DNA from: Candidatus Bipolaricaulota bacterium
GTDB taxonomy: Bacteria > Bipolaricaulota > Bipolaricaulia > M55B111
Direction: 5' to 3'
DNA length: 64,000 bases
NCBI GenBank assembly: GCA_021735245.1
Contig: JAIPHJ010000002.1
Location: forward strand, 26,017 to 90,016
The notes below the pieces were generated by a model, which was given only the letters and a program-made list of their open reading frames with translations, searched no databases and had not been told where the DNA came from. Shown here in pieces: positions 42,081 through 61,543 of the stretch (positions are counted from its first letter, which is position 1; the number at the start of each line of letters is the position of its first letter). The position numbers and the translations under genes were made by a program.

Positions 42081-42155
42081 GGGCGAATAGCTCAGTGGGA
42101 GAGCACCTGACTCACATTCAGGAGGTCGCAGGTTCGAGTCCTGCTTCGCCCACCA
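42081..42155 (+). tRNA. tRNA-Val(CAC), CCA encoded
   Basis: GGGCGAA-TA-GCTC-AGTGGGA-GAGC-A-CCTGA-CTCACAT-TCAGG-AGGTC-GCAGG-TTCGAGT-CCTGC-TTCGCCC-A-CCA. All four stems pair. Confidence 0.93.
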
Positions 42156-42424: not shown

Positions 42425-42557
42425 GTCCTTGCTTACGATTTTCGTACCACCTTACGCACTAATCTCCACTAAGAACAATATTTCCCATTAACATTCCAAT
42501 TTCACCTGCCAAATTTGGATAGATTCCCCGTTTGTTCTATAATCCGAGTGTTCAAGA
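42425..42557 (+). promoter_or_regulatory. Repeated promoter module, copy 1
   Basis: Block GTCCTTGCTTACGATTTTCGTACCACCTTACGCACTAATCTCC. TTGGAT (42515-42520), 17 nt, TATAAT (42538-42543). About 500 nt upstream of 43042. Confidence 0.6.
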
Positions 42558-43041
42558 ATTCCAGAAGAATTACCAAAGGGGGCAATGCAATCCTCCGAGG
42601 AGGAATTACCTGGATCATTCTGCTATTTAACTTTGGAGATTGAGTGTTAAAACTAAAAATCCAAAGCTTTTTGGCTTGTTTATCTGAATATTTGAGTCGG
42701 AAGATTACTCGAAGTTGGCCCTCTTTTTACTTCGAACAAAAGAAACCTGCACAAGTCAAGAAGCTTGCCCCCAGGTACAACTGAAGAACATTGAGGTAGC
42801 TCTGGGGATTTGAAGCACGAAAATCTTGCCAGTCCTCAATTGAGAGTAGACACCTGGTTACGAACAAAGTACGAATTTCACGGCAAGAATCTATAAGAAA
42901 TCCCCACCGTTTATGAGGTACTTGCTACGAAAACCTATTGGGACAAGCACTTAGGTTTACATTCTTTCCTTGTTCTTGTAATATATTTTACATTTCAACA
43001 GGATAGTCTCGTATTAGTATTAGGAGTATAATTTACTAAAG

Positions 43042-44646
43042 ATGTTAAGTCTTTATCAATCCGTTCTAGCTTTTACCATCTTCGTGCTGGTCCTGACCGC
43101 GATTTACGTGGGAAGGCACTACCCTAAGCCGGGAACCCTACCTATGATGTTGGCCCTCATAGCCGTGGTATTCTGGGACCTCGGTTATCTCTTAAGCCTG
43201 GGGGCGGAGGGTCTGTCCACTAAGATCTTCTGGACAAAATTTCAATATCTCGGTTACGAATTCGTTCCCCCTCTCTGGTTTCTCGTCATCTGGCGCTATA
43301 CCCAGCACCGTATAAGAAATCACCGCTCGCTTCTGCTGATATTCGCCCTCCCCCTTCTCACTATAGCCTTTGCTTGGACGAACCAGTTTCACGGGTTATT
43401 GTGGCAGGAAGCGGCCGTGCATGGTCATTTAGGTATTTCAGTTTTAGAAACCGGCCGCGGTCCCTGGTGGCTGGTCGATACATTATATAGCTACAGTTTG
43501 ATCTCGGGAGGGGTATACCTGCTTTTGCGGGACACGATTGGACTCCCGAGCATCTACAAAAAACAGGCGCTGGTTCTTTTAGCTGGAGTCTTAGTGCCGA
43601 TGGCCGGTAACCTCTCCTACTTAATGGGATTGACCCACCACTTAGACCTCGCTCCTCTGACTTTTAGTATTACTGGACTGGTCTTTGCCTGGGGGGTTTC
43701 TCGTTACAGACTTTTCGGGGTGGTTCCCGTTGCTAGGTCGAAGCTTTTGGACGAGATGAATTTGGGAACCCTCGTCATGGATAAAGAAGGGTTGCTTCTT
43801 TCCGTGAATCCCGCCGCCTGCTCCGTTTTGGGCTGCGGCCAAGCTGATATCGGAGAACCTATTGACGAACTCCTTGTGGACCACCCGAAGTTGCTGGATT
43901 ACCTTCGTCGTCGAGAGAAGACCCAGGAGGAGGTAGCTATTTCTACAGGAGGCGAGACGAGTTATTTTGACTTCAAATTAACCCCCCTTGAGTCCGAGAG
44001 AGGTTATACTTCCGGTTGGCTGGCTCAGTTTTACGAGATTACCTCCCGGGTTCAAGCAGAGCAGCGTCTGCGGAAAGTCACAATAGAGACCATGGAAGCA
44101 TTGGCCAAAACTGTGGAGGCCAAGGATGCCTATACTAGAGAACATCTGGACAGGGTGGAAAAGCATGCTCTAGCGGTTGCCGAGCGGTTAGATATTTCCG
44201 AAAAACGGAGAGAGCAACTAAGATTTGCGGCGGTATTACATGACATTGGTAAGGTCCGCGTTCCGGACGGGATCTTGAATAAGCAGGACGGACTAACAGA
44301 TGAGGAATACGACCAAATAAAAGACCATGCGGAGGCAGGGGAAAGCATAGTTGGTCAGGTAAGTTACCTCCAGCAAGCGGCCACCATCATCGGTCAGCAC
44401 CACGAGAAATTCGACGGCTCGGGATACCCCAAAGGGTTGAAGGGCGATGAAATTACGCTGGAAGCCAGGATTCTTTCGGTGGTCGATGCCTACGACGCCA
44501 TGAGATCCGACCGGCCCTATCGGGACGCTTTACCCAGAGAGGTTGCAATAAAAGAGCTAAAGGAGAATAAGGGGACCCAGTTCGACCCGGAAGTGGTCGA
44601 TATCCTGCTCGAGATGATTGAAGCAAGGGAGGCAGAGTTAGAATGA
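43042..44646 (+). CDS. Membrane sensor (7TM HisKA_7TM-like N-domain) - PAS-like - HD-GYP phosphodiesterase
   Basis: 534-aa ORF with 6-7 N-terminal TM helices. HDIGK and HHEKFDGSGYP motifs. Confidence 0.85.
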   Translation: MLSLYQSVLAFTIFVLVLTAIYVGRHYPKPGTLPMMLALIAVVFWDLGYLLSLGAEGLSTKIFWTKFQYLGYEFVPPLWFLVIWRYTQHRIRNHRSLLLIFALPLLTIAFAWTNQFHGLLWQEAAVHGHLGISVLETGRGPWWLVDTLYSYSLISGGVYLLLRDTIGLPSIYKKQALVLLAGVLVPMAGNLSYLMGLTHHLDLAPLTFSITGLVFAWGVSRYRLFGVVPVARSKLLDEMNLGTLVMDKEGLLLSVNPAACSVLGCGQADIGEPIDELLVDHPKLLDYLRRREKTQEEVAISTGGETSYFDFKLTPLESERGYTSGWLAQFYEITSRVQAEQRLRKVTIETMEALAKTVEAKDAYTREHLDRVEKHALAVAERLDISEKRREQLRFAAVLHDIGKVRVPDGILNKQDGLTDEEYDQIKDHAEAGESIVGQVSYLQQAATIIGQHHEKFDGSGYPKGLKGDEITLEARILSVVDAYDAMRSDRPYRDALPREVAIKELKENKGTQFDPEVVDILLEMIEAREAELE

Positions 44647-46388
44647 AGGGAGAAGAAAGAGGTTTACCCCTTTCCGGGGAAACGTTCAGACAGTTATTTG
44701 AGGACGGGCCTGAACCGACCGTTCTCCTTGACGAAAACGGCCGTATCCGGGACCTCAACCGCCGGTTTGAGGAGGTCTTTGGCTACGAGCTGGAAGAAGC
44801 AAAGGGGAAAGGGATTAACAGCCTAATAGTTCCCGAAAGGTTAATCGAAGAAGCAGAGGATCTCGACCAAAAGAGCAAACGGGGCTACCTGAACTACGAA
44901 ACGGTAAGGGAAGGCAAGGAGGGGGAAATTCCCGTTTCGGTCTCCGCCACCCCGGTTACCGTGGAAGAAGGGACTTACGTGATGGCTACCTACAGAGACG
45001 TCACGGAACGGAAGGAGGCCAAAGAAAGGCTAAAATTGACTCGGCGGGAATTAAAAGAAAGCAAAGAAAGGTACCAAAGGTACTTCGAAGAGCTGGGAGA
45101 CGCCATCTTTGTCCTGAAGCTCGGCGGGGCAAACCACGGGGAGATCCTGGACGCAAATACGACCGCCGTAAAACAGACCGGCTACTCTAAGGAGGAGCTA
45201 ATCGGGATGAATATCAGAGAAGATCTGGTTGTCAAATCACCGGCTATGGGCTACGAAGAAGCCGACGATAGGCTAGCAAAAGGAGAGACAATAAGCTTTA
45301 CCGAACAGAAGATAAGCAAGCACGGGACCCCCTACTGGACCGAAGTGGTGGTAACCCCGATAGAGTACGAAGGGAAGGAGGCAGCGCTTTCTATCAATAG
45401 GGATATTACCGAAAGAAAACGAGCCCAGGAGTCTTTAAAAAAGGAAAGAGAGAAGTTAAGACAACTCCACGATGCCGTAGATATCCTACAGCAGCAGGAT
45501 ACTGAAGAGGAGGTCCTCCAGACCGCCGTCGAGGTAGCGGAAAAGATTCTGGATTTTCATATCTGTGCAATCGGACTTGTGGAGGGGGACTACGTCATTC
45601 CCAATGCGACCTCTTCCGGTATAACTCCTGACGATACGACAAAATTCAAGCTCGGAGAAGGAATAACCGGGAAGTCGGTACAGCAGGGGCGATCTATCTG
45701 GGGAGACGACCTCAGAGACTATCCGGAAGCGAAGCCGACGAATCCGGAATTCAAAGCCTTTATCAGTAGCCCGATCGGAGACCTGGGGAACTTCCAAATA
45801 GTCTCCAAAAAGGTGGGAAGTTTTACGGAAAGAGACGTGGAGCTGACCGAAATCCTCGCTGACCACCTCCAGGAAGAGCTTCAGCGAGTCCGGCTGGAGA
45901 AGGAGTTAAGAGAACAAGCAATTAGAGATCCGTTAACCGGCCTGTACAATCGCAGGTATTTCAACGAAATCCTCCAGCAAGAAGCGGAGAAATGTAAACG
46001 ATATGACAGATCCTTGGCTTTCGTAATGATGGACGTAAACAGGTTTAAGGAGATTAACGACCACTACTCTCACCAGAAAGGAGATCGGGTATTAAAAGAA
46101 GTGGCTAACCTGCTTGAAGAAAACGTCAGAAAAGCGGACACTCTGGTACGCTACGGTGGAGATGAATTTCTGGTCATGATACCTTACCCAGATGGGAAAT
46201 CAGAAAACGTTATAACGAGATTGAGGGATAAGCTCCAGAAGTGGAACGAGCAATCGAATCTGCTGGATTCCCCCCTCACTCTGGCAATGGGCATGGCTCA
46301 CTGGAGTCCCGACCAAAATAGAGACGTAGAAGGGGCTTTAAAGGAAGCGGACAAAAAGATGTACGAAGATAAGAAAGACAATAGCTGA
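44643..46388 (+). CDS. PAS-PAS-GAF-GGDEF diguanylate cyclase
   Basis: 581-aa ORF. ATGA overlap with the HD-GYP gene. RYGGDEF with the RKAD I-site. Confidence 0.9.
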   Translation: MKGEERGLPLSGETFRQLFEDGPEPTVLLDENGRIRDLNRRFEEVFGYELEEAKGKGINSLIVPERLIEEAEDLDQKSKRGYLNYETVREGKEGEIPVSVSATPVTVEEGTYVMATYRDVTERKEAKERLKLTRRELKESKERYQRYFEELGDAIFVLKLGGANHGEILDANTTAVKQTGYSKEELIGMNIREDLVVKSPAMGYEEADDRLAKGETISFTEQKISKHGTPYWTEVVVTPIEYEGKEAALSINRDITERKRAQESLKKEREKLRQLHDAVDILQQQDTEEEVLQTAVEVAEKILDFHICAIGLVEGDYVIPNATSSGITPDDTTKFKLGEGITGKSVQQGRSIWGDDLRDYPEAKPTNPEFKAFISSPIGDLGNFQIVSKKVGSFTERDVELTEILADHLQEELQRVRLEKELREQAIRDPLTGLYNRRYFNEILQQEAEKCKRYDRSLAFVMMDVNRFKEINDHYSHQKGDRVLKEVANLLEENVRKADTLVRYGGDEFLVMIPYPDGKSENVITRLRDKLQKWNEQSNLLDSPLTLAMGMAHWSPDQNRDVEGALKEADKKMYEDKKDNS

Positions 46389-46433
46389 TTGACCAGCAAT
46401 TCACACAGCACTCTTAACTAAAATATTGCGTGA

Positions 46434-46565
46434 GTCCTTGCTTACGATTTTCGTACCATCTTACGCACTAATCTCCCCCACGAACTTTGCGTTCCGTAAA
46501 TCTTCAACTATACTCATCAAATCTCGATAGATTCCCCGTTTATTCTATAATCCGGGTGGTCAAGA
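46434..46565 (+). promoter_or_regulatory. Repeated promoter module, copy 2
   Basis: Near-identical block GTCCTTGCTTACGATTTTCGTACCATCTTACGCACTAATCTCC. CTCGAT, 17 nt, TATAAT (46546-46551). Followed by IS debris, not by a gene. Confidence 0.5.
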
Positions 46566-46707
46566 GAGTTAAAATTATCGACTCAGTAAACCATCTCTTT
46601 ACTGGTTTACATAACTAGAAGATATCTATAACCTAGAAAATGATTGGATTGATTATTTTCATTCTATCTTTACGATGAATAGGAGGTTGAAAATATGCCT
46701 AAAAACC

Positions 46708-46961
46708 GAATGTGAAAAAAGGGATCTCCTCCTCAGTGAAAATAGAATGATCAAATTCTAAAAAGGAAGAGGAAACTCCAGGGATAGTCTGCCCAATCAA
46801 AAATCAGCAAAGAAGCTTATTTGTTGAGCAAAAAACAGTCAGAGGACTGGGCCAAACAAAGGATGCGTGGCTTTTAAAAGGCACGAGACCAACTTGAGGA
46901 GATGTTTGAAGAGCGTTACGGGACGGACCGAAACCAATCGGATCAATCAGCTCGGGAGTAG
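46708..46961 (+). mobile_element. Internally deleted IS256-family remnant
   Basis: 46708-46779 aligns with the IS end/leader at 58471-58538. 46880-46961 reads ..ARDQLEEMFEERYG.., like an IS256 transposase C-terminus. No intact ORF. Confidence 0.45.
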
Positions 46962-47033
46962 ACCCCTGAAGTTGGGAATACACAACTTTAGTTGTGCTAC
47001 TCCGCTGAAATTATTAACTATTGTGATAAGACT

Positions 47034-48473
47034 TTAATAAGGTAGTTTCAGCAGAGTATAGCCGAATTCGGGAAGTTTCAGGGAGAGTTTATCTTCGGTG
47101 GTCTCGATCGAACTCTCGCCGAACAAAGATTCCGGTTCCGCGATTCGAGGAAGTTTTTCCGGTGATAATTCGATTTCCCCGGGCTCTCTACTCGAGTTAA
47201 TCGCGGCCAGAAGGGTATCGTTTCCACTTCCCCTACTGTAAACGAATACCTGTTCGTTTGACGATATCTCCCTGAAATTACCATTCCTCAGCGGGGCCAA
47301 TTTGGATCTCAGCTTGATTAAATCCTTGAAGTATTCTCTGAGGTCTTTTCTGTATAGATCCTCTTTCCAGGGATAGGTCCTTCTGCAATCGGGGTCGTCT
47401 CTTCCTTCCATACCTATCTCGTCCCCGTAATAAATTGCCGGTGCGCCGGGAAAAGTGAAGAGGAAAAAGTAACCAAGTTTAAATCGAGCCACGTCGCCCT
47501 CGCACACTGTCATGAACCTTGGCCTGTCGTGGCTGCTGAGTAAGTTGTAATTGGAGAAATTTGCCCAATTCGGATAGGATCGGCGGAGAAAGTATATCCT
47601 CTGGCTGAATTCACGAGCCCCGTACTGATCGCGAGCAATAAAGTCCATCAGAAACCTGTATAGTTCGTAATTCATGACTCCGTCAAGAGCAGCGGACTTA
47701 AACCAGGAGGAGGCGGGGCCAACTACTTCTCCCATCACGTAAGCCCCTGGTTTTATTTCTTTTGCCGCGGATCTTACGGCACGAACAAAACCCGGTTCCA
47801 GGTAATTTACAGTATCCAGACGCCAGCCGTCGATGTCAGCTTCCTTTATCCAGTGCTGAACGACCTCGAGGAGGAATTCACGTACCTCCGGGTTCGTTCT
47901 GTCGAATTCCGGCATACTGGATACCCCTGCCCAGCAGCGGTAGTTTGGTTCGGGCTCATCCTCAATTGGAAAATTATCGACCTCATACCAGTTCCAGTAT
48001 TTTGAGTCACTACCGTTCTTTTTAATGTCCTCGAATGCAAAAAAATGCTCCCCGGAGTGATTAAAAACGCCGTCCAGGACGACCTTCATATCACGGTCGT
48101 GAGCTGATTCCACGAGAGATTTCAAAAGTTCCGTATCACCGAATCGAGGGTCGACTTCGTAATAGTCAGTCGTGTCGTACTTGTGGTTTGAGGGAGAGTT
48201 GAAGATCGGATTTAAATAAATTGCGGTAATTCCGAGTTCTTCCAGGTAGTCCAGCTTACTTTTTACGCCTGCTAAATCACCACCAAAAAAATTGTTTCTC
48301 GTTGGCTTCTCCCCCCAATCTTCAACGTTTTCGGGGTCATTATCCCGATTTCCGTTGTAAAACCTTTCAGGAAATATCTGGTAAAACACGGCATCCCTTA
48401 CCCATTCAGGCGGCCGGATGTTTTGGACACTCGAATCGTCGAAGGAAGTCAATCTCCGTCGACCTTCGGGCAT
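47034..48473 (-). CDS. GH13 alpha-amylase-family enzyme
   Basis: Start set to ATG 48473 (AGGAGG SD, 13 nt after the glgP-like stop). DGWRLDTVNY, GEVVG, LLSSHDRPR catalytic regions. Confidence 0.85.
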   Translation of the reverse strand: MPEGRRRLTSFDDSSVQNIRPPEWVRDAVFYQIFPERFYNGNRDNDPENVEDWGEKPTRNNFFGGDLAGVKSKLDYLEELGITAIYLNPIFNSPSNHKYDTTDYYEVDPRFGDTELLKSLVESAHDRDMKVVLDGVFNHSGEHFFAFEDIKKNGSDSKYWNWYEVDNFPIEDEPEPNYRCWAGVSSMPEFDRTNPEVREFLLEVVQHWIKEADIDGWRLDTVNYLEPGFVRAVRSAAKEIKPGAYVMGEVVGPASSWFKSAALDGVMNYELYRFLMDFIARDQYGAREFSQRIYFLRRSYPNWANFSNYNLLSSHDRPRFMTVCEGDVARFKLGYFFLFTFPGAPAIYYGDEIGMEGRDDPDCRRTYPWKEDLYRKDLREYFKDLIKLRSKLAPLRNGNFREISSNEQVFVYSRGSGNDTLLAAINSSREPGEIELSPEKLPRIAEPESLFGESSIETTEDKLSLKLPEFGYTLLKLPY

Positions 48474-48486
48474 TCTGCTCCTCCTG

Positions 48487-50109
48487 TTAAGTTTCAGTTC
48501 TGCTGTAAAGTTTTTCGTAGTATTTATCAAGCATGCTCTTCGCGGAAAATTCTTCATAAGTCGATTCAATGCTTGTAGCCATCATCTCTTTCCACTTTTC
48601 CCTGTTTTCGTAATAGGTTGGCACGACCTCGTTCAAAAGTACACGATAAAGTGCCTCCCTGTCATGTTGATCCTGTCCTTCACCCTCGTAACCGTCTCCT
48701 AGTTGCCAGCCGTTTTTCCCGTGCTCACATGCTTCTGGCCACCACCCGTCAAGTACGCTCAGGTTTAGCACGCCGTTCATTGCCGCCTTCATTCCCGACG
48801 TTCCGCTCGCCTCCATGGGGCGTCTCGGGTTGTTTAGCCAGACGTCGACTCCCCGGGTCAGGAAACTTCCTATTTCCATCCCGTAATCCTCGAGGAACAC
48901 GACGCTTTCCGGGTACTCCTCGGATTTATCGACCAGTTCGGTTATTATGTCCTTACCTGTATCGTCGAGGGGGTGGGCTTTACCGGAAAACACTAACTGA
49001 ATGTCGCCGCTTTCCAGGTAGGGTGATATTTTCTCCTTACTGGAAAAGATCAGGTTTGCCCGCTTGTAAGGTGCGGCCCGACGAGCAAATCCTATTATCA
49101 GTTTATTCTGATCGAGCTCTACTCCAGTTCTATCCTTTACGTAGTCAACGAGAGCACGCTGTAGCTCAGTGTGTCTCTTCCATACCTCTTCCTTTTTTTC
49201 CGCCCCGGATATCTCCGGATCGACCCAGGTATCGCGATGGATTCCGTTGGTTACCCCCTGGATGCTCGGTCTATCGTCCACGTGCTTCCACATATCTCTG
49301 GCAGTCTCTTTGTGTAGCTGAGAGACGCCATTTGCGGCTTTTGCAAGCCGTAACCCAGCAGCGGTCATATTGAACGGTTTACCGCCAATACTCTCCATCT
49401 CTTCTTCGGATAATCCGTTAAACGCTTCCATATATTTCATTACTCTCATACTGTGCTCTTCGTTTCCCTTTTCAACTGGAGTATGCGTGGTAAAGACAAT
49501 TTCCTCTCTGGTTCGGGAGTACGCTTCCTCGAAACTGAGTCCGGCTTTAGTTTTTTCCTTGATTAACTCGGTTCCCGCGAGAACGGCATGCCCTTCGTTG
49601 AAGTGATATATATCTGGTTCAAAACCCAGCCTTCTTAACGCTTTCACACCGCCGATTCCGAGGACAATCTCCTGGGCGATTCGTTCTTCCTCGAACCATC
49701 CGTAAAGCTGGCCGGTTATCCACTTGTTTGAATTTTCCTTTAGATTGGTGTCGAGCAGATAGAGCGGTGCGTTGTCGTATTTTTCGAGCTTCCAAACCCG
49801 GCAAGCTATCTCTTCGTTCTTTATCTTTACGTAAACCTTTATGCCTGTATCCTCAAGATAATCGTACGTGTAATCGTTTCGCGGGTAGGTATCCACCGGG
49901 CGACCTTTTTCGTTTATCACCTGTTTGGTGTAACCCTGGCGCCAGAGGATTCCGATCCCTATCATGGGCAAATCCTGATCTTTTGCCGTTTTAAGGATGT
50001 CGCCAGCCAGGATACCGAGTCCACCGGCATATATTTTCATCTCCTCGGCCAGGCCGTACTCCATACAGAAATAAGCCACTGAAGGCTTGTCAGCTTCCAC
50101 TGTTTTCAC
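48487..50109 (-). CDS. glgP: Alpha-glucan (maltodextrin/glycogen) phosphorylase, short GT35 type
   Basis: 540-aa ORF. PLP-lysine motif EASGTSGMKAAMNG; YAGGLGILAGD near the N-terminus. Confidence 0.85.
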   Translation of the reverse strand: MKTVEADKPSVAYFCMEYGLAEEMKIYAGGLGILAGDILKTAKDQDLPMIGIGILWRQGYTKQVINEKGRPVDTYPRNDYTYDYLEDTGIKVYVKIKNEEIACRVWKLEKYDNAPLYLLDTNLKENSNKWITGQLYGWFEEERIAQEIVLGIGGVKALRRLGFEPDIYHFNEGHAVLAGTELIKEKTKAGLSFEEAYSRTREEIVFTTHTPVEKGNEEHSMRVMKYMEAFNGLSEEEMESIGGKPFNMTAAGLRLAKAANGVSQLHKETARDMWKHVDDRPSIQGVTNGIHRDTWVDPEISGAEKKEEVWKRHTELQRALVDYVKDRTGVELDQNKLIIGFARRAAPYKRANLIFSSKEKISPYLESGDIQLVFSGKAHPLDDTGKDIITELVDKSEEYPESVVFLEDYGMEIGSFLTRGVDVWLNNPRRPMEASGTSGMKAAMNGVLNLSVLDGWWPEACEHGKNGWQLGDGYEGEGQDQHDREALYRVLLNEVVPTYYENREKWKEMMATSIESTYEEFSAKSMLDKYYEKLYSRTET

Positions 50110-50278
50110 CTCTAATTTTAATCATGTGTAAGAAATAAACTCATCCAGACCTGGAACGAATGAACTCCCTGACAAATTAACTAAACGCGTTTACTTTGCC
50201 CTCTCAGTGAATCTTTCCTCGTCCGAGTTCTGGGGGGTAGAAATCTTTCAGAGTTTTATTATTTAGAATATTTATTGG

Positions 50279-51172
50279 TTATCCTTTGACCGAACCCTGG
50301 GTCAGACCGGCAACGATCTGATCCTGGAGGCTTAAAAATATAGTTACTATAGGTACTGCCCCAATTAAGGCTGCTGCCGCAAATATACCCCAGCGCTGGT
50401 TGTAGCTTCCGAATATAAACAGCTTTAACCCGACGGCTAACGTGTACTGGCTAGTATCCTGAAGCAGTATGCTGGCCAGGATGAAGTCCGAGTAGACGAA
50501 GATCATAGTTAAAATGAAGATAACGGCGAGCATCGGTCGGGCCAGAGGCAATATTATTCTGATGAATGCCTGGAAGTGAGAAGCGCCATCGACCTGGGCG
50601 GACTCCTCGAGTGAATGGGGTATTGAATCAAAGAAGCCTTTTAAAAGCCAGGTGTGGAAACCGAGTGTTCCACCGAGGTAAACCATCAGTAGGCCAGTAT
50701 GGGTATTTAATCCAAGCCACGGAGCTAGGTCGCCGATTTGGAGTAAAAGGAAGTATAACGCAACCATGGCAAGCATCTGGGGGAACAATTGCACGAGTAG
50801 AAGTCCCAGTAGTCCGGTTCGCCTTCCAGTAAAGCGGAATCGGGAGAAGGCGTATGCAGCCAGAGCGGACATGGCGGTGCCGATTAATCCGGTCAGGACC
50901 GATAGTTTAAGGCTGTTCCAGAGCCAGAGAAGAAATGGAGCGTTGTACTTGTCGGCGCCGCCCAGAAAGAAAAGCCGGTAGTTCTCAAGCGTGGGGTTAT
51001 CCGGTACAAGGCTCTGGGCGGAAAGCGAGCCAACGGGATTAACTGAGGCAGAAATTATCCAGATTATGGGGTAGAGGACGAAGGCCAGCACGGCTAGCAT
51101 AATTAAGTGTTTGAAGCCCCTGCCTGAAAACCATGACCAGAACCGTTTAAAAACTGACTTTGTATTAAACAT
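50279..51172 (-). CDS. malG: Maltodextrin ABC transporter permease
   Basis: 297-aa ORF, six TM segments, EAA loop LEESAQVDGASHFQAFIRIILPLARP. Confidence 0.85.
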   Translation of the reverse strand: MFNTKSVFKRFWSWFSGRGFKHLIMLAVLAFVLYPIIWIISASVNPVGSLSAQSLVPDNPTLENYRLFFLGGADKYNAPFLLWLWNSLKLSVLTGLIGTAMSALAAYAFSRFRFTGRRTGLLGLLLVQLFPQMLAMVALYFLLLQIGDLAPWLGLNTHTGLLMVYLGGTLGFHTWLLKGFFDSIPHSLEESAQVDGASHFQAFIRIILPLARPMLAVIFILTMIFVYSDFILASILLQDTSQYTLAVGLKLFIFGSYNQRWGIFAAAALIGAVPIVTIFLSLQDQIVAGLTQGSVKG

Positions 51173-52739: not shown

Positions 52740-52797
52740 ATCCCCTGGAAAATATCAGGGCCGGCCTAAGCTCCAGCCGGCCCGGTAAACTTCGTGG

Positions 52798-54003
52798 TTA
52801 ATATTCTCCCTGCCCTATTGCCTCTTTAATTATTTTTTCTGCGGCTTCCATGGCTGCTTCTGGTTCCTGTTTTTGCTGAGAGATCAACTGTAACTTATCA
52901 GTCAAAGCTCCCCAGGTTGCGTTCATTTCAGGGATATTGGGCATCGGTGTGCCAACGCTTGCGCTCTCGAGAAAAGCAGCGGTAGTTGGGTCGTTCTTTG
53001 CCTTCTCCCTTACGGGCTTGTAAACTGGCGGTCGATTTCCTTTCTCGTAAAGTTCCATCATAACATCTTCTGTAGCTACGTAATTGGTCAGGAACTCGTT
53101 TGCAAGGACCGTATCCTCGGCGTAACTGCTGAGGTAGAATCCGTTAACTCCGACGAAAGGCTTGGGCTGGTTTCCGTCCATGGGAGGAAGTTTCATGACA
53201 CCAAAGTCAATTCCCGCATCCTTGACTCCACTAATGGCCCAGGGTCCAGTCATCCACATGCCGGCGTCCCCCTCTGTGAATAGTCCCTGTGATGTACTGT
53301 AATCTATACCCTGAGGAATTAGGCCATCCTCGTACATTTTGTCGAGTATTCTCAGTCCTTTCAAGGCGCCTTCAGTGGTCAGGCCTAATTGATCCGGGTT
53401 GAATCCCCCTTCGTACTTGAATATGTAACCTCCGTGTGCACTGATGAATGGATAAGTGTGATAGGGGTCACCCGTCCCGGGATAAACGAACCCGTACTTC
53501 TTTTCCTCAGGGTTCGTCAGCTCCCGTGCAACCTCCATTAATTCGTCCCACGTTTCCGGGGGTTCTTCGACGAGTTCCTTGTTGTAGATCAGGGCGATTG
53601 CCTCCATGGAGTACGGCAGGCCATAAATGCTGTCGTTGTAGGTGAAGGCGTCCAGGCTGACTTCCGTGAATTCCTCCTTTAGGTCTTCCGACATAATTAT
53701 CGGTTCAAGTAAGCCATTCTGGGCCAGCTCTCCCGTCCAATCGTGGGCTCCGATTAGGATATCGGGACCTTCCTCCGATGGTGCAGCCTTGTTGAACTGA
53801 GACCTAATATCGTCGTAATTAATCTGTGAAAGTTCGACGTCTACGCTGTAATCGTCCTCGAAATCCTCCGTAATCGGTTTGAGTATTTCGTAACGGACTT
53901 TGTCAGTCCAGATTTCCAGAACCCCCGCCTTTTTGGCACTGGCGGCAAAGACTGTACCCAGTACCAGGGTCAGACTCAAAGTAATAATCAAAGCTTTTTT
54001 CAT
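52798..54003 (-). CDS. malE: Maltose/maltodextrin-binding protein
   Basis: 401-aa ORF with a signal peptide. Family-1 SBP pattern (IWTDK..., PDILIGAHDW, GVNGFYLS). Confidence 0.85.
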   Translation of the reverse strand: MKKALIITLSLTLVLGTVFAASAKKAGVLEIWTDKVRYEILKPITEDFEDDYSVDVELSQINYDDIRSQFNKAAPSEEGPDILIGAHDWTGELAQNGLLEPIIMSEDLKEEFTEVSLDAFTYNDSIYGLPYSMEAIALIYNKELVEEPPETWDELMEVARELTNPEEKKYGFVYPGTGDPYHTYPFISAHGGYIFKYEGGFNPDQLGLTTEGALKGLRILDKMYEDGLIPQGIDYSTSQGLFTEGDAGMWMTGPWAISGVKDAGIDFGVMKLPPMDGNQPKPFVGVNGFYLSSYAEDTVLANEFLTNYVATEDVMMELYEKGNRPPVYKPVREKAKNDPTTAAFLESASVGTPMPNIPEMNATWGALTDKLQLISQQKQEPEAAMEAAEKIIKEAIGQGEY

Positions 54004-54070
54004 TTTAGTCCCTCCTGTATTAGAAGTAGTTAAAGATAGTTACCAGTTAATCTGACCTTTAACGTTTGTT

Positions 54071-57041
54071 CTACTCACCACCTCCCGTATTCGGGTTCGG
54101 TGAAACTTTAAAAGGTTTTAAAGTAGCGTACTTCTTTTCCGTTCGATCGTAGCTGGATAGAATATTTTTCTGTTCTCCTGCCGGCGCCAGGTAATCGTAA
54201 ACGTTTGAAGAAACAGATGGGTGCTTAGCACCACCACCCTGCCAGGTTGAAGCTTCTTTCTGGACTGTTCTGATGTGATCCCGTCCGTAACCGTCCTGGG
54301 AGAAAACCATCAGGTAGTGGTTTCCATCTATCTCCGGCAGCAACTCCTTCGGTATTCCCGCTATCACTCGCTTCTGTTTTACGTTCGAAGATACGTCGAT
54401 CTTGTACCCCTCTCCGTCTGCAGTAACCAGCTCCCTGCCGTATCCAGGCCACCCGGCAATTTTAACAAAGTAATCCCAGGTTGCTTCGGACGAGAACCTA
54501 ACACCCGCGCCTTCTTTACGAGGTTCGACTTTTCCACCCTTTTCTGAGTCTATATAGAGGTTAATCAATTGATGGCTGAAGCCGAGAGGGGCGTCCCAGG
54601 GGTTGGTCATTGCTCCGAACTCGAAGCTCAATAGCCACTTGTCACCGGCGTCATAAATTTCGTATTTTCTCAGGTCGAAGAGTCCTTCGTGGTCGAATAC
54701 GGAATTTTTCGGGTATGAATAATTGCCAGGGCCGTAGTCATCTCCCTCAGGATCGTTAACTGTGAAGACTCTTGTTCCGCTGAGAGGCTTTGGAATTCTC
54801 GTCCTTACCGGACGTTCAGGTATGGAAGTTAATTGGGTACCGGCTTTTCTTCTTTCCGCCGAAAGCCTTAAAGTAAAGTTTTCTTCGGGCTCGATATTAA
54901 TAGTTTCATAAGGAAACTTGAATTCTATTATTTCTCCCACCTCTGCCACTCGCCGAGAGAGGTTTGAAATACTGCTGGCGAACTTCCAGTTTCTTTTGCC
55001 GTCAGCTCTGTAACGAAAGACATTCCAGGTTCCGTCAGCTTCCACATCTTCCATGTGGAGGGACACCATTTGAGATAACGGAAAGCCCAACTTTGTTTCC
55101 CCATATCGGGTTCTGGCGTTTGCCCTGGTTTCACCGCTCAGATACAGGTTAAAACTAAGGTCTTGCCCGATATATTTTCGGGCTTCTTCTACGGTATCTA
55201 TTCTGACGAAAAGGTCGTTTGGCCCGTAACCAAGGTAAAGATCGGTATAAATTTCGCTGGCATCGGTCTGGAAATGAACCGCATTTCTCCACTCTTCTTC
55301 TGAGGTGATCGTGCCGTCAAGGGTTACTTTTACTCCGCCGAGGTTTTCGGCAATTGGTGGTGACTTATCCACAAATAATTCTGCAGGTATATCCTCCCTG
55401 GAATAACCCGATTGGCGGTAGGAATTAATAAGGTGTGTTTTGAATAACCCGTCAAAAATCTCGTCATTTCCGGAGTCCTTGTCCGTACCGTACCACCAGA
55501 ACCAATCGCTACCTTCAGCTGCCAGGATTGCATTTCTTGCAGGAGAACCAGGTGGCTCTTCCTGGATAGCTTGTCTGGCTTCAATCAACCTCCGCCAGGC
55601 TCGGTCCTCTTCCGGTTCCCCTCTCCAGGTTGAAAGGTCCCCGGCCCATGAACCGGTGGCCAGTTTATCGATTTCTGTGGTTTCTCCTTTCTGGCTCTCT
55701 ATAAATTTCCCTGGAGTGGTTGTTTTTACCCATTCCGTTTTCTCCAGCTCTCGGTAGAGCTCTTCAAGGAAAGACCGTCCATTGTTTGGGTACCCGGCCA
55801 TGAACATCCAGTTTTCTCCATCAACTGCTATCGTTACCAGCTTCTCCCTGGGGTTTGCCAGGTTTTCCTTTATTTCTTTAAGCTCTTCTATAAAATCGTC
55901 TACCGCATAACTTGTTGATTTATTGCCATAGCTAAAACTTATATTGTCCGAAAGTTCGCTGTAGCGAAAGAAAACGTAAGCTTCTCCTTTCTGACTTGAA
56001 ACTCTATAGGGTTTCGTTAGCTGTCTCATAAGGAGTTTCCCCTAAACTATCTGCCAGTACCTTTTGATCGGAAACGAACCAGTCGAAACCTGATTCCACC
56101 ACCGGGCCAACTATGGACTGACTGACCGCCTGTTCCGGGGGCCAGAGTCCAGCTGGAGATTGACCGAAGATATCTTCGTAACGGTCTATACCCCGCCTGA
56201 GCTGGTTCCGGGTATCTTCCGGCCATGGTTCCTTGCTTACTCCTTCCCAGCCTTCGTCCATAAGCAGTGGTAGGAGGGGATGATAGTAAGGGCTGGTAAT
56301 TATCTCGGAACCTTTTTCGGCGACTTCCTTGTACTCGTCGATCAAGTCCCGACAAATATCCCGCTGAGCTTCGATAGTTCTGATTACATCAGATCTCTCG
56401 TAATTTTCTTTTCCCCGAAGATCTGTTAACCCGTACTCCTCGTGGAGCCTTGGAGATATCTGCCAGAGAAAGAAGAGCGCGCTCAGGTCTGTAATTTCAT
56501 CGGCTGTTAGGCTTCTCTCATCGGAAACTTCCCTTAGCTCCGCGTACCTGGGAGAATAGTAAGGATCGTCTCCGTTGTCGTCGAACATATAGGGATTAAG
56601 GGAGAAGAACTCGTCCTCTACTTTTTCTCGTTCCTTCCGGCTTAGTTCTTTCGGATCCTTCAACGCCAGTTTCAGGTGAGGATCAGTTGCCCCGATGTAT
56701 TTATAGGCTCCCCCTCTATCCTTTTCTTCTTCGCTAATTTCGACGTAATCCTCTATCTGGTCGAGCAAGCTGGGCACGAGGTTATAAGTAACCTCAATTT
56801 CTTCGAACTGTTTTAGAATTAGTGGGCTGTCGAAGTACTCCTGTACGGCGTGAACCCGGGCCCAGGGTAGCTCATACTTCTGTTTCCTGACATCCTTGTA
56901 GAGAGGTTGATGCTGGTGCCAGATAAGGGCGAGGTTAAGTCTATCCGACTTCTCCGCGGCTCCCCCCCCGGCCAATCCTCCGGCTGTCAAAAGGAAAACC
57001 AATATCATCAGGACGATTAGATGGGACGAAGAATTTTTCAT
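54071..57041 (-). pseudogene. GH57 amylopullulanase-like gene split by a frameshift in a C4/G4 run (56039-56042)
   Basis: ORFs 56004-57041 (WHQHQPLY, GLWPPEQAVS nucleophile region) and 54071-56029 (VDGENWMF acid/base region, GSDWFWWYG) overlap by 26 nt. Removing one G gives ..ADSLGKLLMRQLTKPYRV... Confidence 0.75.
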
Positions 57042-57084
57042 TTTAACCCCCCCGATTAATTAAATCAAAAGGACCGAAAAATCG

Positions 57085-58311
57085 TTACTGTTTATTTTTT
57101 AATTGCTTTCCCCCTGGCTCTTCTATCCTTCTAACTTTGTGGTGAAGGGGCAGGTTGAGGAAGTTCCGAATTGCCAGCAAAGCAGCCCCGATCAACCAAC
57201 CTTCTTGTCCCAGCGTTGCACGTACGATTTCTAATTCCCTGTCTTCTTCCGGAAAAGAGTGGTTCAAGACCTCTTTTTTCAACCTGGGCATAAAAAAATC
57301 CGCCTCGCTCAGTCTCTCGCCTCCCAGCAATACCGCTTCCGGGTTTAGTGTATTTACGAGATTCTTGATACCAAGACCGAGGTTATAGCCCAATCTCTGG
57401 AATATCTCCAGGGCCTGTCCGTCGCCCTCGGACGCAAGGCTGGAAAGGTTTTCTATAGTCGGTGGTTTAAAGTCCAGGTTTTCAATTTCGTTTCTCAGGA
57501 AGTAGTCTGATGCCAGGGCCTCCAGGCAACCATTTTCGCCGCAGCGGCAGCGTGGCCCATTTGGATCCAGAGTGATGTGACCTATTTCGCCTGCGCCGCC
57601 GATAGCACCTCTATGGAGCGTTCCGTCGATCATCAGTCCGGCGCCGACTCCTTCTCCAACGGTTAAGCAGAGAAAATCTTCGTAATCCTTGCCCGCTCCC
57701 AGCCATCCTTCGGCTAGAGTGAAAGCATTTACGTCGTTATCAACTACTACTGGAATTGAACTATCAGGTAGGAGAACGTCAGCCAGCGGCACGTCGCTCC
57801 AGTCCAGGATGGGTGTATAAATAATAGTTCCGCCGTCCGATATAAAACCGGATACGCCTATCCCCAAACCGAGGACCTCTCCGGTTTCAGAGTAAGAGTT
57901 AAGATCTTGCCTGATTATTTCTAGAACCGTATCCAGGTCTGGCTCGGATTCAATTTCCGTAGTGTTGCCATCTATCTTATTGGTGCTCAGGTCGTAAAAA
58001 CCGGAAATTACCCTTCTATTTTCTATCTTAACGGCTGCTACGGACCCAAAATCGTCGTTGATGTCAAGTAAAGTTGGCTTTCTACCGCCGGTTGATTGAC
58101 TCACACCAACCTCTACTATGAGGTCGGAAGAAATTAACTTCGAGGTTATATTGGAGATTGTGGCTGGGGCCAGACCTGTTATTTGGGCGATTGTTTTCCG
58201 GGGAATCGGGTCCCCTTTGTAAAGGAGAGATATAACCGCCCTCGTATTGTAGTCACGCATCAGCTCTTTACTGATGCTTCTCGAGTTTTCGGAGCGCGAT
58301 AGATCTTTCAT
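57085..58311 (-). CDS. ROK-family transcriptional regulator
   Basis: 408-aa ORF. N-terminal wHTH, ROK sugar-kinase fold, zinc motif CRCGENGCLE. Confidence 0.85.
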   Translation of the reverse strand: MKDLSRSENSRSISKELMRDYNTRAVISLLYKGDPIPRKTIAQITGLAPATISNITSKLISSDLIVEVGVSQSTGGRKPTLLDINDDFGSVAAVKIENRRVISGFYDLSTNKIDGNTTEIESEPDLDTVLEIIRQDLNSYSETGEVLGLGIGVSGFISDGGTIIYTPILDWSDVPLADVLLPDSSIPVVVDNDVNAFTLAEGWLGAGKDYEDFLCLTVGEGVGAGLMIDGTLHRGAIGGAGEIGHITLDPNGPRCRCGENGCLEALASDYFLRNEIENLDFKPPTIENLSSLASEGDGQALEIFQRLGYNLGLGIKNLVNTLNPEAVLLGGERLSEADFFMPRLKKEVLNHSFPEEDRELEIVRATLGQEGWLIGAALLAIRNFLNLPLHHKVRRIEEPGGKQLKNKQ

Positions 58312-58470
58312 TTACCCTCCGGAGAAGCGAGAGACTTACTTAATTTAATAAATAAAGTCTAACCAGAGTTGAAATAATTGCAACCAAAACTCCGGTTCTG
58401 GAAAAATTAGGCAGGCAACATAAGTTTTGTCCGTTTCCCTGCTCCATACCGGACCGTTTGTCGTGTATGA

Positions 58471-58783
58471 ATGTGAAAAAGGGGTCTCCTCCTCATTAAG
58501 AATAGAATGATCAAATTATAAAAGGAGGAGAAAACCCCATGACCGATGAAAGTATAGAATTAGAAGAGTTTGACAAACCGTTGAATGAAATGCTTAAGAA
58601 CAGGGTTAAGGAACGACTTGAAAAGATAATGGAGGCCGAAAGAGAGGCCTTCCTTTCTGAAGAAAACCCGAAGACGTTGCCAACGGCTACTACAACCGGG
58701 GCCAGGAAACCAGGTTCGGCGAAATAGAGGATCTGGAGGACCCAAAACAGGTTGATCTCCTAACAGTGAGCCAAATTTATTAA
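58471..58783 (+). mobile_element. IS256-family transposase 5' fragment (frameshifted and truncated)
   Basis: ORF 58539-58727 reads ..LEKIMEAEREAFLSEE... The shifted frame gives ANGYYNRGQETRFGEIEDLEDPK (IS256 NGYY..R...T..G.I signature), then ends at 58783. About 85 of roughly 400 codons are present. Confidence 0.6.
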
Positions 58784-58817
58784 CGTTCACATAAGAATCC
58801 CCTTAAAGAGGGCACCG

Positions 58818-59339
58818 TTATTCGGGCTCGAAAGTTGACTCCTCAATGGGTTCGTTGACGGATATCTCATATAGCTTGACTTCCTCTTCCTCTCCTTCTT
58901 CTACTTCCATTATGGTATACGTTTCTTCTCCTTCGACCCCAAGCCAAAAAGCCACACCCTTTTCATTTAGAAATGGGTTCCTCATCTTTTTCCACATGGC
59001 CTCTCCATTGGGAATTTCCTGCCACTTACCACCGGTACTTTCTATATCCCTGTAAAAGACTCTCTTTTCCTTATCCATTATCCACTCCTGCAGTACTTTA
59101 TCTTCGTCTTTACTGGTTGTGGTCATTCGGAATAGCTCGTTTTCGGTGTTAATATTGTCGAACCAGTACTCGGTTACCGCTGGTTCCCCCCTGACAGTTC
59201 CGTCAATTTTGAAATTTAAGCTATCCAAACTTTTACCCGTATCCTCCTCAGAAGCCACAATGTTAGGGCCGACAACTAGGACCGCGACGGCCAACAGGAA
59301 AACTATTGTAGCCGTCGAAAGTTGATTTAATTTAGTCAA
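58818..59339 (-). CDS. Exported protein, possibly LolA-like/DUF4367 fold
   Basis: 173-aa ORF with a signal peptide. C-terminal ..YEISVNEPIEESTFEPE resembles LolA-like family endings (weak). Confidence 0.45.
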   Translation of the reverse strand: MTKLNQLSTATIVFLLAVAVLVVGPNIVASEEDTGKSLDSLNFKIDGTVRGEPAVTEYWFDNINTENELFRMTTTSKDEDKVLQEWIMDKEKRVFYRDIESTGGKWQEIPNGEAMWKKMRNPFLNEKGVAFWLGVEGEETYTIMEVEEGEEEEVKLYEISVNEPIEESTFEPE

Positions 59340-59775
59340 CGGTAAAACCCCCTATTTTATCGATGCCATTTGAAAGAGATGAATAGCGAATAATCAAAGA
59401 ACTAAAGTTACAATATAACTTCCGTAAAATAAATGCAAGATTTGGGGTTCCTGGCCTGGGCCGTTTTGACAATTCATTATTTAAGGGAGAAGATGCGTTT
59501 GTTTTGGCACTCTGTTAAGTCACCCCGGTCTGAGTCGATCTTTAGTATATCAAATCTTCCCTGCCTCGACTGTCGTACGTGAAGTTTATTACTAACCCAA
59601 TGTAGTCCCTTATTTTCGGCTGAAGTGTTAATCTTCTTAGACGCTATGTCGTCCACATATTCGGAAAATAGCATGCTCTCAGAACAATTCTATGTGGTTT
59701 AAACGATCCGGCGGGTTAAATTTCGATTATTTTCCCGTGTGGTATATAATACCGGTAGACAAAGGAGGCAAATTT

Positions 59776-61113
59776 ATGTTTACGGGAAATCCAGAAAAAA
59801 GTAGTAATAAGGCTTTATCAATTCTCCTGGCGGCCTTGGTGGTTTTTACCTGTGTCTATTCGACCCAATCCGTTTTGGCCGAGAGCGAGGGAGTAACCGA
59901 TTCGAGTTACTTTGAATTTGATTCCGAAGCAGGGGCAATAACGGGGTATGAGGTTGCTGGAGGGTCGGACGTAGTTATCCCTTCTAAAATAGACGGGGTA
60001 GATGTGAAAGAAATTGGATTGAAGGCATTCACCGACACTGACTTAACCTCGGTCGAGATCCCGGATGGCGTGGAGGAAATTAAGGCGTGGGCGTTCAGTG
60101 TTAACGACCTGACTTCAGTTGAGATACCGAACAGCATTAAAGAAATTGGAATGCAGGCGTTTGCTGAGAATAACCTGGAAACAGCTGAGTTGGTCGAGGG
60201 ACTGGAAGTGATCGGAAGGGGCGCGTTCAGCGTTAACGAGATTGTCTCGATTGATATCCCGGACAGCGTAAGAGAAATTGGGTTGGGGGCATTCTATGGT
60301 AACGACCTTAATTCAGTTGATATACCGCGAAGGGTTAAAAAAATTGGAAAGCAGGCCTTTCATAAAAATAAGTTGAGTTCAGTTGAGATAGGGGATGGCG
60401 TGGAAGTAATCGGAGCAGCCGCATTTCAGGACAATAATCTCACCTCCGTAAAAATACCGGACAGTGTTAAAGAAATTAGAGGGGGAGCATTTGCGAAAAA
60501 TGATCTGCCTTCTGTCGATATACCCAGTAGCCTGGAAATGCTCGGGACGGCGGCATTTTACGGTAACAACCTGTCCTCCGTGAAGATTCCAGCTGGTTTA
60601 AGAAAGATCGCAGAGAGGGCTTTTGCAGTCAATAATTTAGCCTCGATAAAGATACCCGACAGGGTTGAAGCCATAGGAAAGGGAGGGTTTGCGAAAAACG
60701 CCCTAACCTCGGTAAATATGGGAGAAAGTTTGGAAGTGATCGGAGAATTGGCATTCTATGACAATGATCTAACATCTATAAAGCTGCCGGGTAGGGTAAA
60801 AGAAATCCGTAGAGGGGCCTTTCAAAAAAATAATTTGTCTTCTGTTGTAATACCTAATAGCGTGGAGGTAATTGGAGAAGCGGCATTCTACAAAAATGGC
60901 CTGACCTCAATAAAGCTACCGAGTAGCGTGAAAACGATCGGAGAAGGGGCATTCTATAACGGCGACTTAACCTCGGTCGAGATAGGAGAAAGTGTGGACG
61001 TAGCTGGAAATTCATTCCAGGGTAATTTTATAGAAGTTTACACAGAGAATAATAAATCAGCGGGAGTATACGAACGAGATAATGCAGATAGCGACTGGTA
61101 TAAACAGGGGTGA
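59776..61113 (+). CDS. Exported leucine-rich-repeat protein (BspA-type LRR)
   Basis: Start at ATG 59776 (AAAGGAGG SD, signal peptide). About 15 repeats of ..L.SV.IP..V..IG..AF..N. Confidence 0.85.
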   Translation: MFTGNPEKSSNKALSILLAALVVFTCVYSTQSVLAESEGVTDSSYFEFDSEAGAITGYEVAGGSDVVIPSKIDGVDVKEIGLKAFTDTDLTSVEIPDGVEEIKAWAFSVNDLTSVEIPNSIKEIGMQAFAENNLETAELVEGLEVIGRGAFSVNEIVSIDIPDSVREIGLGAFYGNDLNSVDIPRRVKKIGKQAFHKNKLSSVEIGDGVEVIGAAAFQDNNLTSVKIPDSVKEIRGGAFAKNDLPSVDIPSSLEMLGTAAFYGNNLSSVKIPAGLRKIAERAFAVNNLASIKIPDRVEAIGKGGFAKNALTSVNMGESLEVIGELAFYDNDLTSIKLPGRVKEIRRGAFQKNNLSSVVIPNSVEVIGEAAFYKNGLTSIKLPSSVKTIGEGAFYNGDLTSVEIGESVDVAGNSFQGNFIEVYTENNKSAGVYERDNADSDWYKQG

Positions 61114-61382
61114 GGATTACACTTTAAAAACAATATTAACTAAACCTAGCTCCTCACCTACATTACTCAGTATTCTGCCCTACTGGTATGATAAATCTTA
61201 TCCCAGGGAAAGTGGAGAGTTTGCTTGGGAGCTTAAGTGTGGAGATCGTGGTAACGATATTGCCTAACGAGATAAATTTAAATCTGCTGAAGAACTTCAG
61301 GCTTACGTTTTGGAAGAAAATGAAAGAACTCCCTGTGAGGAGACACGTGATTGGCGGGCTGGATATAAAGGTCTTTGGTTAA

Positions 61383-61495
61383 GATTTCCGTACCACTTTA
61401 CGTTCTAATCTCTGCCAATAATATCATTTTTCGTTAACACTTGATCCTCCGATTTCACTGACAAATTTGGATATATCCCTCTTGTAACCTATAAT
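61383..61495 (+). promoter_or_regulatory. Repeated promoter module, copy 3
   Basis: GATTTCCGTACCACTTTACGTTCTAATCTCT. TTGGAT (61467-61472), 17 nt, TATAAT (61490-61495), 48 nt before ATG 61544. Confidence 0.6.
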
Positions 61496-61543
61496 CCTAT
61501 TCTATTTGCGCCTCAATCGGATCAGAGGTATTTTTATACTACA

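Follow-up and report, generated by a model that had tools for sequence, protein, structure and literature searches.

Promoter-bearing miniature inverted-repeat transposable elements (MITEs), among them the Correia repeat-enclosed elements of Neisseria, are short dispersed intergenic repeats able to supply promoters to their neighbours; Correia elements end in terminal inverted repeats, duplicate a TA target and are not fixed in orientation. In Borrelia burgdorferi, the erp operator, or upstream homology box, is a conserved region of ~130-145 bp located 5' of the start site and repeated before divergent surface-lipoprotein genes; it comprises a sigma-70-type promoter and, upstream of this, sites for DNA-binding proteins by which all copies are co-regulated (PMC9112904). 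Putative mobile promoters (PMPs), as defined by Matus-Garcia, Nijveen and van Passel (2012; summary in PMC3575422), show at least 80% identity along at least 50 nt upstream of non-paralogous genes of one genome. Here, we describe a repeated module of ~130 nt found in a stretch of 64,000 nt (hereafter, the window), positions 26,017 to 90,016 of contig JAIPHJ010000002.1 of a Candidatus Bipolaricaulota bacterium (assembly GCA_021735245.1). This module is probably a reusable promoter cassette of the sigma-70 type, optionally joined to an operator and specific to a single genus-level group of halophilic Candidatus Bipolaricaulia.

Comparison with described systems

The genome to which the window belongs (G000) is a 1.95-Mb Candidatus Bipolaricaulia metagenome-assembled genome (MAG) of 83 contigs, 85% complete, in which the window corresponds to C65:26017-90016; the closest public record of an HD-GYP protein encoded there (89% identity) comes from a Candidatus Bipolaricaulia MAG. 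Within this genome, the first copy of the module is 83% identical to a copy at C72:88648 along 114 nt, 80% identical to the second copy along 133 nt, and 82% identical to a half copy at 11037-11094 along 51 nt. The proteins encoded behind the copies so compared have unrelated domains, no insertion sequence (IS) element, tRNA or Rfam family accounts for the module, and no open reading frame (ORF) lies inside it. The family thus corresponds to the PMP definition, and it shares with the PMPs the similarity of upstream regions, their presence in related taxa, the absence of an IS or Rfam association and an unexplained mode of spread (PMC3575422). PMPs occur mostly in pairs (PMC3575422), whereas the present family has 8-9 members in G000 and, in one relative, as many as about 30; in comparison with the PMPs, it also adds a two-part anatomy (a core and an optional putative operator block), a bias to secreted proteins and co-oriented arrays.

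In functional terms the closest likeness is the erp box of Borrelia, with which the module has no sequence similarity. The erp loci belong to cp32 prophage plasmids, and BpaB, BpuR and EbfC bind to them (PMC9112904); the module copies are chromosomal and without matches in viral contigs. The gene set behind the module is also wider, as it takes in cytoplasmic enzymes and HD-GYP sensors, and a protein that binds the module is only putative. In contrast with Correia elements, the module is strongly gene-oriented and has no terminal inverted repeats or target duplication; the features that define MITE/Correia elements or integron attC sites were not found in it.

Copies in the window and in the genome

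The initial annotation, made from the letters of the window alone, had proposed a module of about 130 bp occurring three times, always next to genes for cyclic di-GMP (c-di-GMP) turnover. The three copies are indeed homologous along ~130 nt, with pairwise identities in a six-copy alignment (A2) of 79% for copies 1 and 2, 75% for copies 1 and 3, and 65% for copies 2 and 3, and a repeat finder retrieved both their 5' block (family D3) and their 3' block (family D1). A profile built from the six full copies of the genome and run against the whole 1.95-Mb assembly (nhmmer) recovered the full copies with E values of 4e-37 to 7e-27. The limits first proposed for copies 1 and 2 could be kept, whereas copy 3 begins 12 nt earlier than had been thought (Table 1). 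The annotated promoter geometry, TTGGAT or CTCGAT followed after exactly 17 nt by TATAAT, was confirmed in the three copies, each of which scored 10/12 in a promoter consensus scan (register TGGATA/TCGATA-16-TATAAT), and the alignable similarity fades 10-15 nt 3' of the -10 box, as had been described. The dyad CGTA-N6-TACG pointed out at that stage is present, though a second symmetry, TACGA-TTT-TCGTA, is better conserved and becomes degenerate only in copy 3.

The count of three was too low, since the window also holds a half copy, with the promoter block only, and a diverged core. In the half copy, 24 nt with AAGGAGG separate TATAAT from the ATG (11025) of a PKD-domain lipoprotein gene; in the diverged core, 25 nt with a Shine-Dalgarno (SD) sequence separate it from the ATG (59776) of a BspA-type leucine-rich repeat (LRR) protein. 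The genome-wide search suggested by the initial annotation gave six full copies, two half copies and one diverged copy, of which three full copies and one half copy lie outside the window. The hexamers TTGNNN-17-TATAAT are found in all of them with the exception of copy 2 (CTCGAT-17-TATAAT) and the diverged core (TTCGAT-17-TATAAT). On contig C72, at 43687-43750 (-), a decayed core TTGGTT-17-GATAAT, below the profile threshold, was also noted upstream of the orthologue of a 647-aa secreted protein whose gene is module-driven in the relative G009.

Table 1. Positions of the module copies and of the features around them (window coordinates, unless a genome or contig is given)
Feature	Position	Strand	Remarks
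Module copy 1, full	42425-42557	+	Upstream block 42425-42468, then linker, then core promoter; E 4e-37
Copy 1 palindrome TACGATTTTCGTA	42434-42446	+	Second TTACG at 42452-42456
Copy 1 core promoter	TTGGAT 42515-42520; TATAAT 42538-42543	+	17-nt spacer
Module copy 2, full	46434-46565	+	Palindrome 46443-46455; E 6e-32
Copy 2 core promoter	CTCGAT 46523-46528; TATAAT 46546-46551	+	17-nt spacer
Module copy 3, full	61371-61509	+	Most diverged of the three; E 7e-27
Copy 3 degenerate palindrome TAAGATTTCCGTA	61380-61392	+	
Copy 3 core promoter	TTGGAT 61467-61472; TATAAT 61490-61495	+	17-nt spacer
Half copy, core promoter only	11037-11094	-	Inverted 3' block in repeat finder, 82% along 51 nt; E 8.5e-8
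Half copy core	TTGGCA 11078-11073; TATAAT 11055-11050	-	17-nt spacer
Diverged family member	59698-59762	+	TTCGAT 59722-59727, 17 nt, TATAAT 59745-59750; E 0.003 (nhmmer), 5e-4 (covariance model)
Extra full copy in G000	C65:93489-93611		Before gene for 357-aa membrane-anchored coiled-coil protein
Extra full copy in G000	C72:88770-88640		Before gene for 319-aa secreted protein, no Pfam domain
Extra full copy in G000	C62:2349-2219		Before gene for 207-aa BspA-LRR lipoprotein
Array in G003, C6	1417, 3397, 4811, 6413, 7695		
Array in G009, C91	725, 2066, 4717, 6089		
Array in G002, C56	75, 1284, 3289, 4392, 5425		
PKD-domain lipoprotein gene	10390-11025	-	Behind half copy; in-frame TAA 10720-10722
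tRNA-Val(CAC)	42081-42155	+	Lies 270 nt ahead of copy 1; given as context
Stretch poor in open reading frames	42558-42955	+	Separates copy 1 from the promoter-like site of the operon
Proximal promoter-like site TTTACA-17-TAATAT	42956-42984	+	~60 nt upstream of HD-GYP start
7TM-PAS-HD-GYP gene	43042-44646	+	Overlaps PAS-GAF-GGDEF gene
PAS-GAF-GGDEF gene	44643-46388	+	Operon 43042-46388 flanked by copies 1 and 2
Stretch without genes behind copy 2	46566-47033	+	~470 nt, then convergent alpha-amylase gene
TM-GAF-PAS-HD-GYP gene	61544-63235	+	Behind copy 3; in-frame TGA 62126-62128

Distribution in relatives

In a BLAST search, 9 of the 14 genomes of the genus carried the module, whereas all 23 from other families of the class lacked it. 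With a covariance model based on sequence only (R1), the carriers rose to 11 of 14, and one of three genomes of a sister genus was added; this model gave 31 matches in one genome and 10 in each of two others. Many copies in the relatives form co-oriented arrays with a spacing of 1-2 kb (Table 1), and contig C65 of G000 likewise carries a co-oriented array of modules and genes. Of the 75 matches obtained in relatives, at least 22 are no more than 300 nt away from a contig end, which indicates that the element, or the regions marked by it, tends to break assemblies, and true copy numbers are therefore probably higher. The core pattern was also present in 15 metagenome contigs, again as arrays. 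It had no match in viral contigs, and an origin in a phage or plasmid was set aside on this ground.

Anatomy and conservation of the module

Across 53-75 distinct copies, conservation is strongest from about -40 to +12, where the hexamers hardly vary and the constraint on the 17-nt spacer is nearly as strong. The core of the G000 copies reads AATTTGGATAG-ATTyyCCGTTTATTC-TATAAT-CCnAGTGnTCAAG, and two variants can be distinguished in the family: A (TTTGGATAGATTyyCCGTTTATTCTATAAT), which takes in every G000 copy, and B (TTTGGTTAGTTTTTCCATTTATTCTATAAT), whose exact 30-mer is identical at 31 sites, a count inflated by the metagenome pattern, which required near-exact matches. Many sites have only the core in common, with unrelated sequences beyond -40 on the upstream side; the core is thus the basic unit, to which the linker and the 5' block are optional additions. 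Generic TTGNNN-17-TATAAT sites of G000 have unrelated spacers, and the module therefore represents a class of its own, distinct from the general promoter consensus.

The 5' block, GCTTACGATTTTCGTACCAC, which holds TACGA-N3-TCGTA, is nearly invariant across species where present, and is missing from about half of the sites. The linker is weakly conserved and differs in length by -31 to +23 nt; in the A consensus, the linker and the spacer each contain the motif AyTTTCCGTTwA, at a distance of 43 nt from each other. In three relatives (G009:C167:93-330, L097; G003:C134:1-240, L028; G011:C14, L075), the 45-nt 5' block is fused to a different conserved sequence of ~190 nt, which marks the block as a separate unit. 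This partner sequence contains a hairpin, GGCGCT-N9-AGCGCC, and in G009 a truncated B-type core comes next to it on the downstream side.

A reading of the module as a transcribed regulatory leader RNA, or as an attC-like recombination site between gene cassettes, could draw on the co-oriented arrays of modules and genes in G003, G009, G002 and contig C65 of G000. It is hardly credible: conservation stops near the predicted start site, no Rfam match was obtained for the module at E values up to 1, and the single-stranded DNA folds of three copies, on both strands, gave z-scores of -1.5 to +0.6, no better than shuffles, nor was any stable or symmetric fold seen on either strand. The distance to the start codon, which varies between 24 nt and over 250 nt, is likewise against it, as is the leader behind copy 1, which is neither conserved nor significantly structured (see below). 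Folding of an attC-like or RNA-like kind was not supported.

Genes behind the module

At 58 distinct core sites with sufficient flanking sequence, a co-oriented ORF with an SD sequence began within 300 nt in 35 cases, in comparison with 7 of 58 in the opposite, control direction. With the hexamers at 17 +/- 1 nt, this gene-directed placement is as expected of a sigma-70 promoter. The most frequent arrangement, seen at 10 sites, places the start codon 24-26 nt past the -10 box, as TATAAT-CCnAGTGGTCAAGGAGG-N7-ATG.

The downstream genes are unrelated to each other and include those for C39-like peptidases, an aspartokinase, a GT20 glycosyltransferase, an SRPBCC protein, an HNH/GreA-C protein, beta-helix and laminin-G proteins, PKD and LRR lipoproteins, and many proteins without a Pfam domain. 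By a crude hydrophobic-stretch rule, N-termini resembling a signal peptide or transmembrane (TM) segment were found in 25 of the 35 downstream ORFs (~70%), against 31% of the long ORFs in the genome background (binomial P ~8e-7); as the sites are not all independent, owing to orthologues and overlapping metagenome contigs, this and the other P values are indicative only.

The orientation bias also bears on the view that the module is a non-autonomous mobile element, or a repeat of the REP or MITE kind, whose resemblance to a promoter is incidental. While the many copies, their enrichment at contig ends, the existence of some copies without a gene and of other repeat families in G000 would all fit such an element, we consider it very improbable, given the strong bias of orientation and of distance to start codons. 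Moreover, end-to-end inverted matches were no better than those of shuffles in a search for terminal inverted repeats, the flanks of the copies had no common direct repeat that could represent a target-site duplication, the single-strand folds were as poor as those of shuffles, no association with a transposase was seen, and viral contigs gave zero matches.

Relation to c-di-GMP genes

In G000 there is a local association between the module and c-di-GMP genes. Five of the six full copies directly flank three c-di-GMP operons, on one side or the other, and operons of this kind adjoin three of the four independent module loci, a larger share than chance would give (rough binomial P ~6e-5). The c-di-GMP complement of this genome is itself very dense for 1.95 Mb, with 15 GGDEF and 13-14 HD-GYP domain hits and about ten HD-GYP-then-GGDEF pairs. 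The placement of copy 3 before the GAF-PAS-HD-GYP gene was borne out, with 48 nt between the copy and the start codon, and in one relative (G004:C3) a GGDEF gene stands directly upstream of a copy. From such observations it could be proposed, as the initial annotation did, that the module is a promoter of the c-di-GMP network under one regulator, duplicated together with paralogous HD-GYP/GGDEF genes.

We regard this proposal as improbable. Of the ~11 HD-GYP/GGDEF operons of G000, the module precedes only two (43042 and 61544). The HD-GYP gene at 43042 has its closest paralogue on C77 (71% identical), and there neither a module nor upstream homology is present. The flanking genes fall outside the homology, which ends at the module edges, so a joint duplication with the signalling genes is not what the copies reflect. 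Three copies (copy 2, C65:93489 and the one on C62) sit just downstream of c-di-GMP operons, and the latter two face other genes. Half of the six full copies in G000 precede genes for BspA-LRR, 319-aa and coiled-coil proteins, and dozens of those in relatives precede genes unrelated to signalling, so that the claim of a constant c-di-GMP neighbourhood fails; such additional copies away from signalling genes are what the initial annotation had itself named as a refutation. Along 287 kb of module loci in relatives (overlaps included, and with flanks of only 1.5 kb at many loci, which limits the test), a single GGDEF gene, the one in G004:C3, and no HD-GYP gene were found; this is no excess over the genome-wide density and corresponds to a c-di-GMP gene nearby at 1 of ~60 sites. 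The idea of a common promoter controlled by a regulator stands in so far as the module resembles a promoter and its upstream block an operator; a dedication to c-di-GMP does not. Most simply, the module and the c-di-GMP genes share the same variable accessory regions, and two membrane HD-GYP sensors may have been recruited into the regulon in this species.

The operon between copies 1 and 2 was examined in its own right. Copy 1 had been described as pointing through a leader of ~500 nt at this operon; the orientation is correct, but the operon has a promoter-like site of its own close to the HD-GYP start, and this is the part conserved in the closest orthologue. In G008, the 124 nt upstream of the HD-GYP start, with this site included, are 86% identical, and no module was found in the 290 nt available upstream; the retention of the proximal promoter and not of the module by this orthologue is a further point against a c-di-GMP-dedicated module. 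Copy 1 may add a long 5' untranslated region (UTR) to the operon, give rise to a non-coding transcript, or be a relic.

For the stretch behind copy 1 (42558-42955), the search for a structured RNA that had been advised gave no Rfam match and no significant fold (minimum free energy z-score -1.24); a riboswitch or structured leader, such as c-di-GMP-I/II, was looked for in 42558-43041 with the same outcome, and the stretch is not kept in the G008 orthologue. Only over its first ~110 nt does it resemble the sequence 3' of the module in G001 and G010, where the module precedes a different gene. Several candidates for this stretch were tried and rejected: a 21-codon short ORF (42585-42650) as a conserved peptide, the frame being lost in G001 and G010; the remnant of a lost gene, as tblastn with the gene following the G010 module gave no match; and a decayed seventh copy at 42797-42936, a segment of 140 nt missing in the G008 orthologue, since 27-45 of 300 shuffles scored equally in local alignment. 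Also observed, 3' of module-type promoters in three genomes (window 42754-42796; G008:C147, L114; G009:C93, L099), was the motif AGTCAAGAAC followed by a GC-rich hairpin (GCCCC...GGGGC); a link of the G009:C93 sequence to the copy-1 leader rests on ~25 common nucleotides and was not used.

Retention and probable exchange between loci

The core has been kept at orthologous genes. It precedes the gene of the 319-aa secreted protein in G000, G002 (82% amino-acid identity) and G009 (64%), and that of the PKD lipoprotein in G000 and G009, the latter with a full module. At the 319-aa locus the 5' UTRs can be aligned among the three species, while the sequence upstream of -40 differs: G000 has a full A-type module with the 5' block, G002 the core alone, and G009 a B-type core with a linker beginning 'CAGAGTTCGGCAA...'. 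This linker is common to at least six non-homologous loci of G009 and one locus of G002. Genomes of type A and type B are interspersed on a tree of an rpoB fragment, in which G000, with A copies only, and G002, with B copies only, are sisters; the tree is that of one gene fragment and has moderate support. A use of the subtypes as clade markers, which would have suggested co-evolution with a factor, was rejected on account of this interspersion.

Orthologous retention of the core, together with the differing upstream parts, the sharing of the linker and the interspersed subtypes, points to vertical retention of a selected core combined with copying or exchange between loci. The same data bear on a static regulon, in which the copies would be maintained independently as sites of a single transcription factor or alternative sigma factor, passed on by vertical descent and kept similar by selection alone. 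Such a regulon would explain the core at orthologous genes of different species, the maxima of conservation at the hexamers and the palindrome, and the functional coherence of a gene set made up of envelope and secreted proteins. It would not lead one to expect a similarity of 130 nt, linker included, before non-homologous genes, the recurrence of one linker at non-homologous loci of G009 and in G002, subtypes discordant with the rpoB tree, or a different upstream part at an orthologous locus, and we regard it as unlikely.

Proposed model

In the reading that we favour, a reusable cassette, the basic unit would be the ~50-nt core, from about -40 to +12, at which RNA polymerase with the housekeeping sigma factor would most likely initiate ~7 nt past TATAAT. 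The canonical transcript is predicted to open with a leader of ~17 nt bearing AAGGAGG, with the start codon 24-26 nt past the -10 box. The optional upstream part would consist of the weakly conserved linker and the 45-nt block centred near -110, where TACGA-N3-TCGTA in GCTTACGATTTTCGTACCAC represents a putative site for a dimeric DNA-binding regulator, possibly acting jointly with the equally constrained T-rich spacer. The cassette appears to head accessory genes, chiefly those of secreted, lipoprotein or membrane proteins, which in G000 would include the two membrane-anchored HD-GYP sensors. It would be inherited at orthologous loci and also copied before non-homologous genes, and its upstream part would be swapped between lineages, most likely via recombination between copies; this mode of spread is suggested by the patterns of sharing described above.

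Several points weigh against this reading. Plain sigma-70 promoters do not usually have an invariant spacer. No co-oriented gene was found ahead of copy 2, of C72:90884 and of three sites on G003:C6, the last of which converge on real minus-strand genes; such copies are either relics or a sign that the element is not always the promoter of a gene. The transcription start at the module promoters is a predicted one, and the binding of a regulator at the upstream block is putative, both being drawn from sequence. All genomes compared are incomplete MAGs, and the interdependence of sites, the crude signal-peptide rule and the inflated 30-mer count noted above belong here as well.

The ~50-nt core is conserved to the letter, spacer included, ahead of dozens of unrelated genes in several species. 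It may be that this core is read not by the housekeeping holoenzyme alone but is the recognition site of a dedicated factor, either a sigma factor or an activator or repressor that contacts the spacer, paired with the TACGA-N3-TCGTA operator in a genus-specific, portable expression system copied through recombination. This version seems rather unlikely to us; if true, a variable secreted and surface proteome, with some c-di-GMP sensors, would be under one switch.

Other observations around the copies

Copy 2 begins 46 nt past the GGDEF stop codon. It had been said to point into IS debris: a gene-free stretch does lie ahead of it, but the identity of this stretch as an IS (IS256) could not be confirmed, as a 62-aa ORF had no Pfam match and the other genomic match was without a transposase. 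A repeat of ~75 nt (46708-46780 and 58468-58540, 86-90% identical) brackets a maltodextrin/glycogen gene cluster, and its second copy runs into the 62-aa ORF. Integration at the tRNA-Val gene was considered and rejected, the tRNA and the module having no common word of at least 8 nt.

The in-frame TAA of the PKD lipoprotein gene falls after codon 101, and the frame runs on for 108 codons with a 77% alignment to the intact G009 orthologue; this interrupted gene is either a pseudogene or an assembly error. With the TGA in the copy-3 gene, which falls in the GAF region, two module-driven genes of the window have premature stops, with different stop codons. Paralogues resembling staphylococcal nuclease, with near-identical C-termini, were noted at 11175-11834 (-) in the window and at G000:C72:86989-87480 (-), each of them adjoining a different module-driven gene: the former lies upstream of the half copy, and the latter downstream of the 319-aa gene.

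Significance for the Bipolaricaulota

To our knowledge, the Bipolaricaulota are a phylum without a cultured member, and we know of no experimental knowledge of their transcription signals. For this phylum, the family supplies a well-defined and strongly constrained promoter and a candidate operator. The three copies of the window should not be taken as a control element specific to c-di-GMP; the module marks, instead, an accessory and mostly secreted gene set of these salt-lake bacteria. As such, the family represents a large and anatomically clear case of a form of promoter reuse that is still poorly understood.

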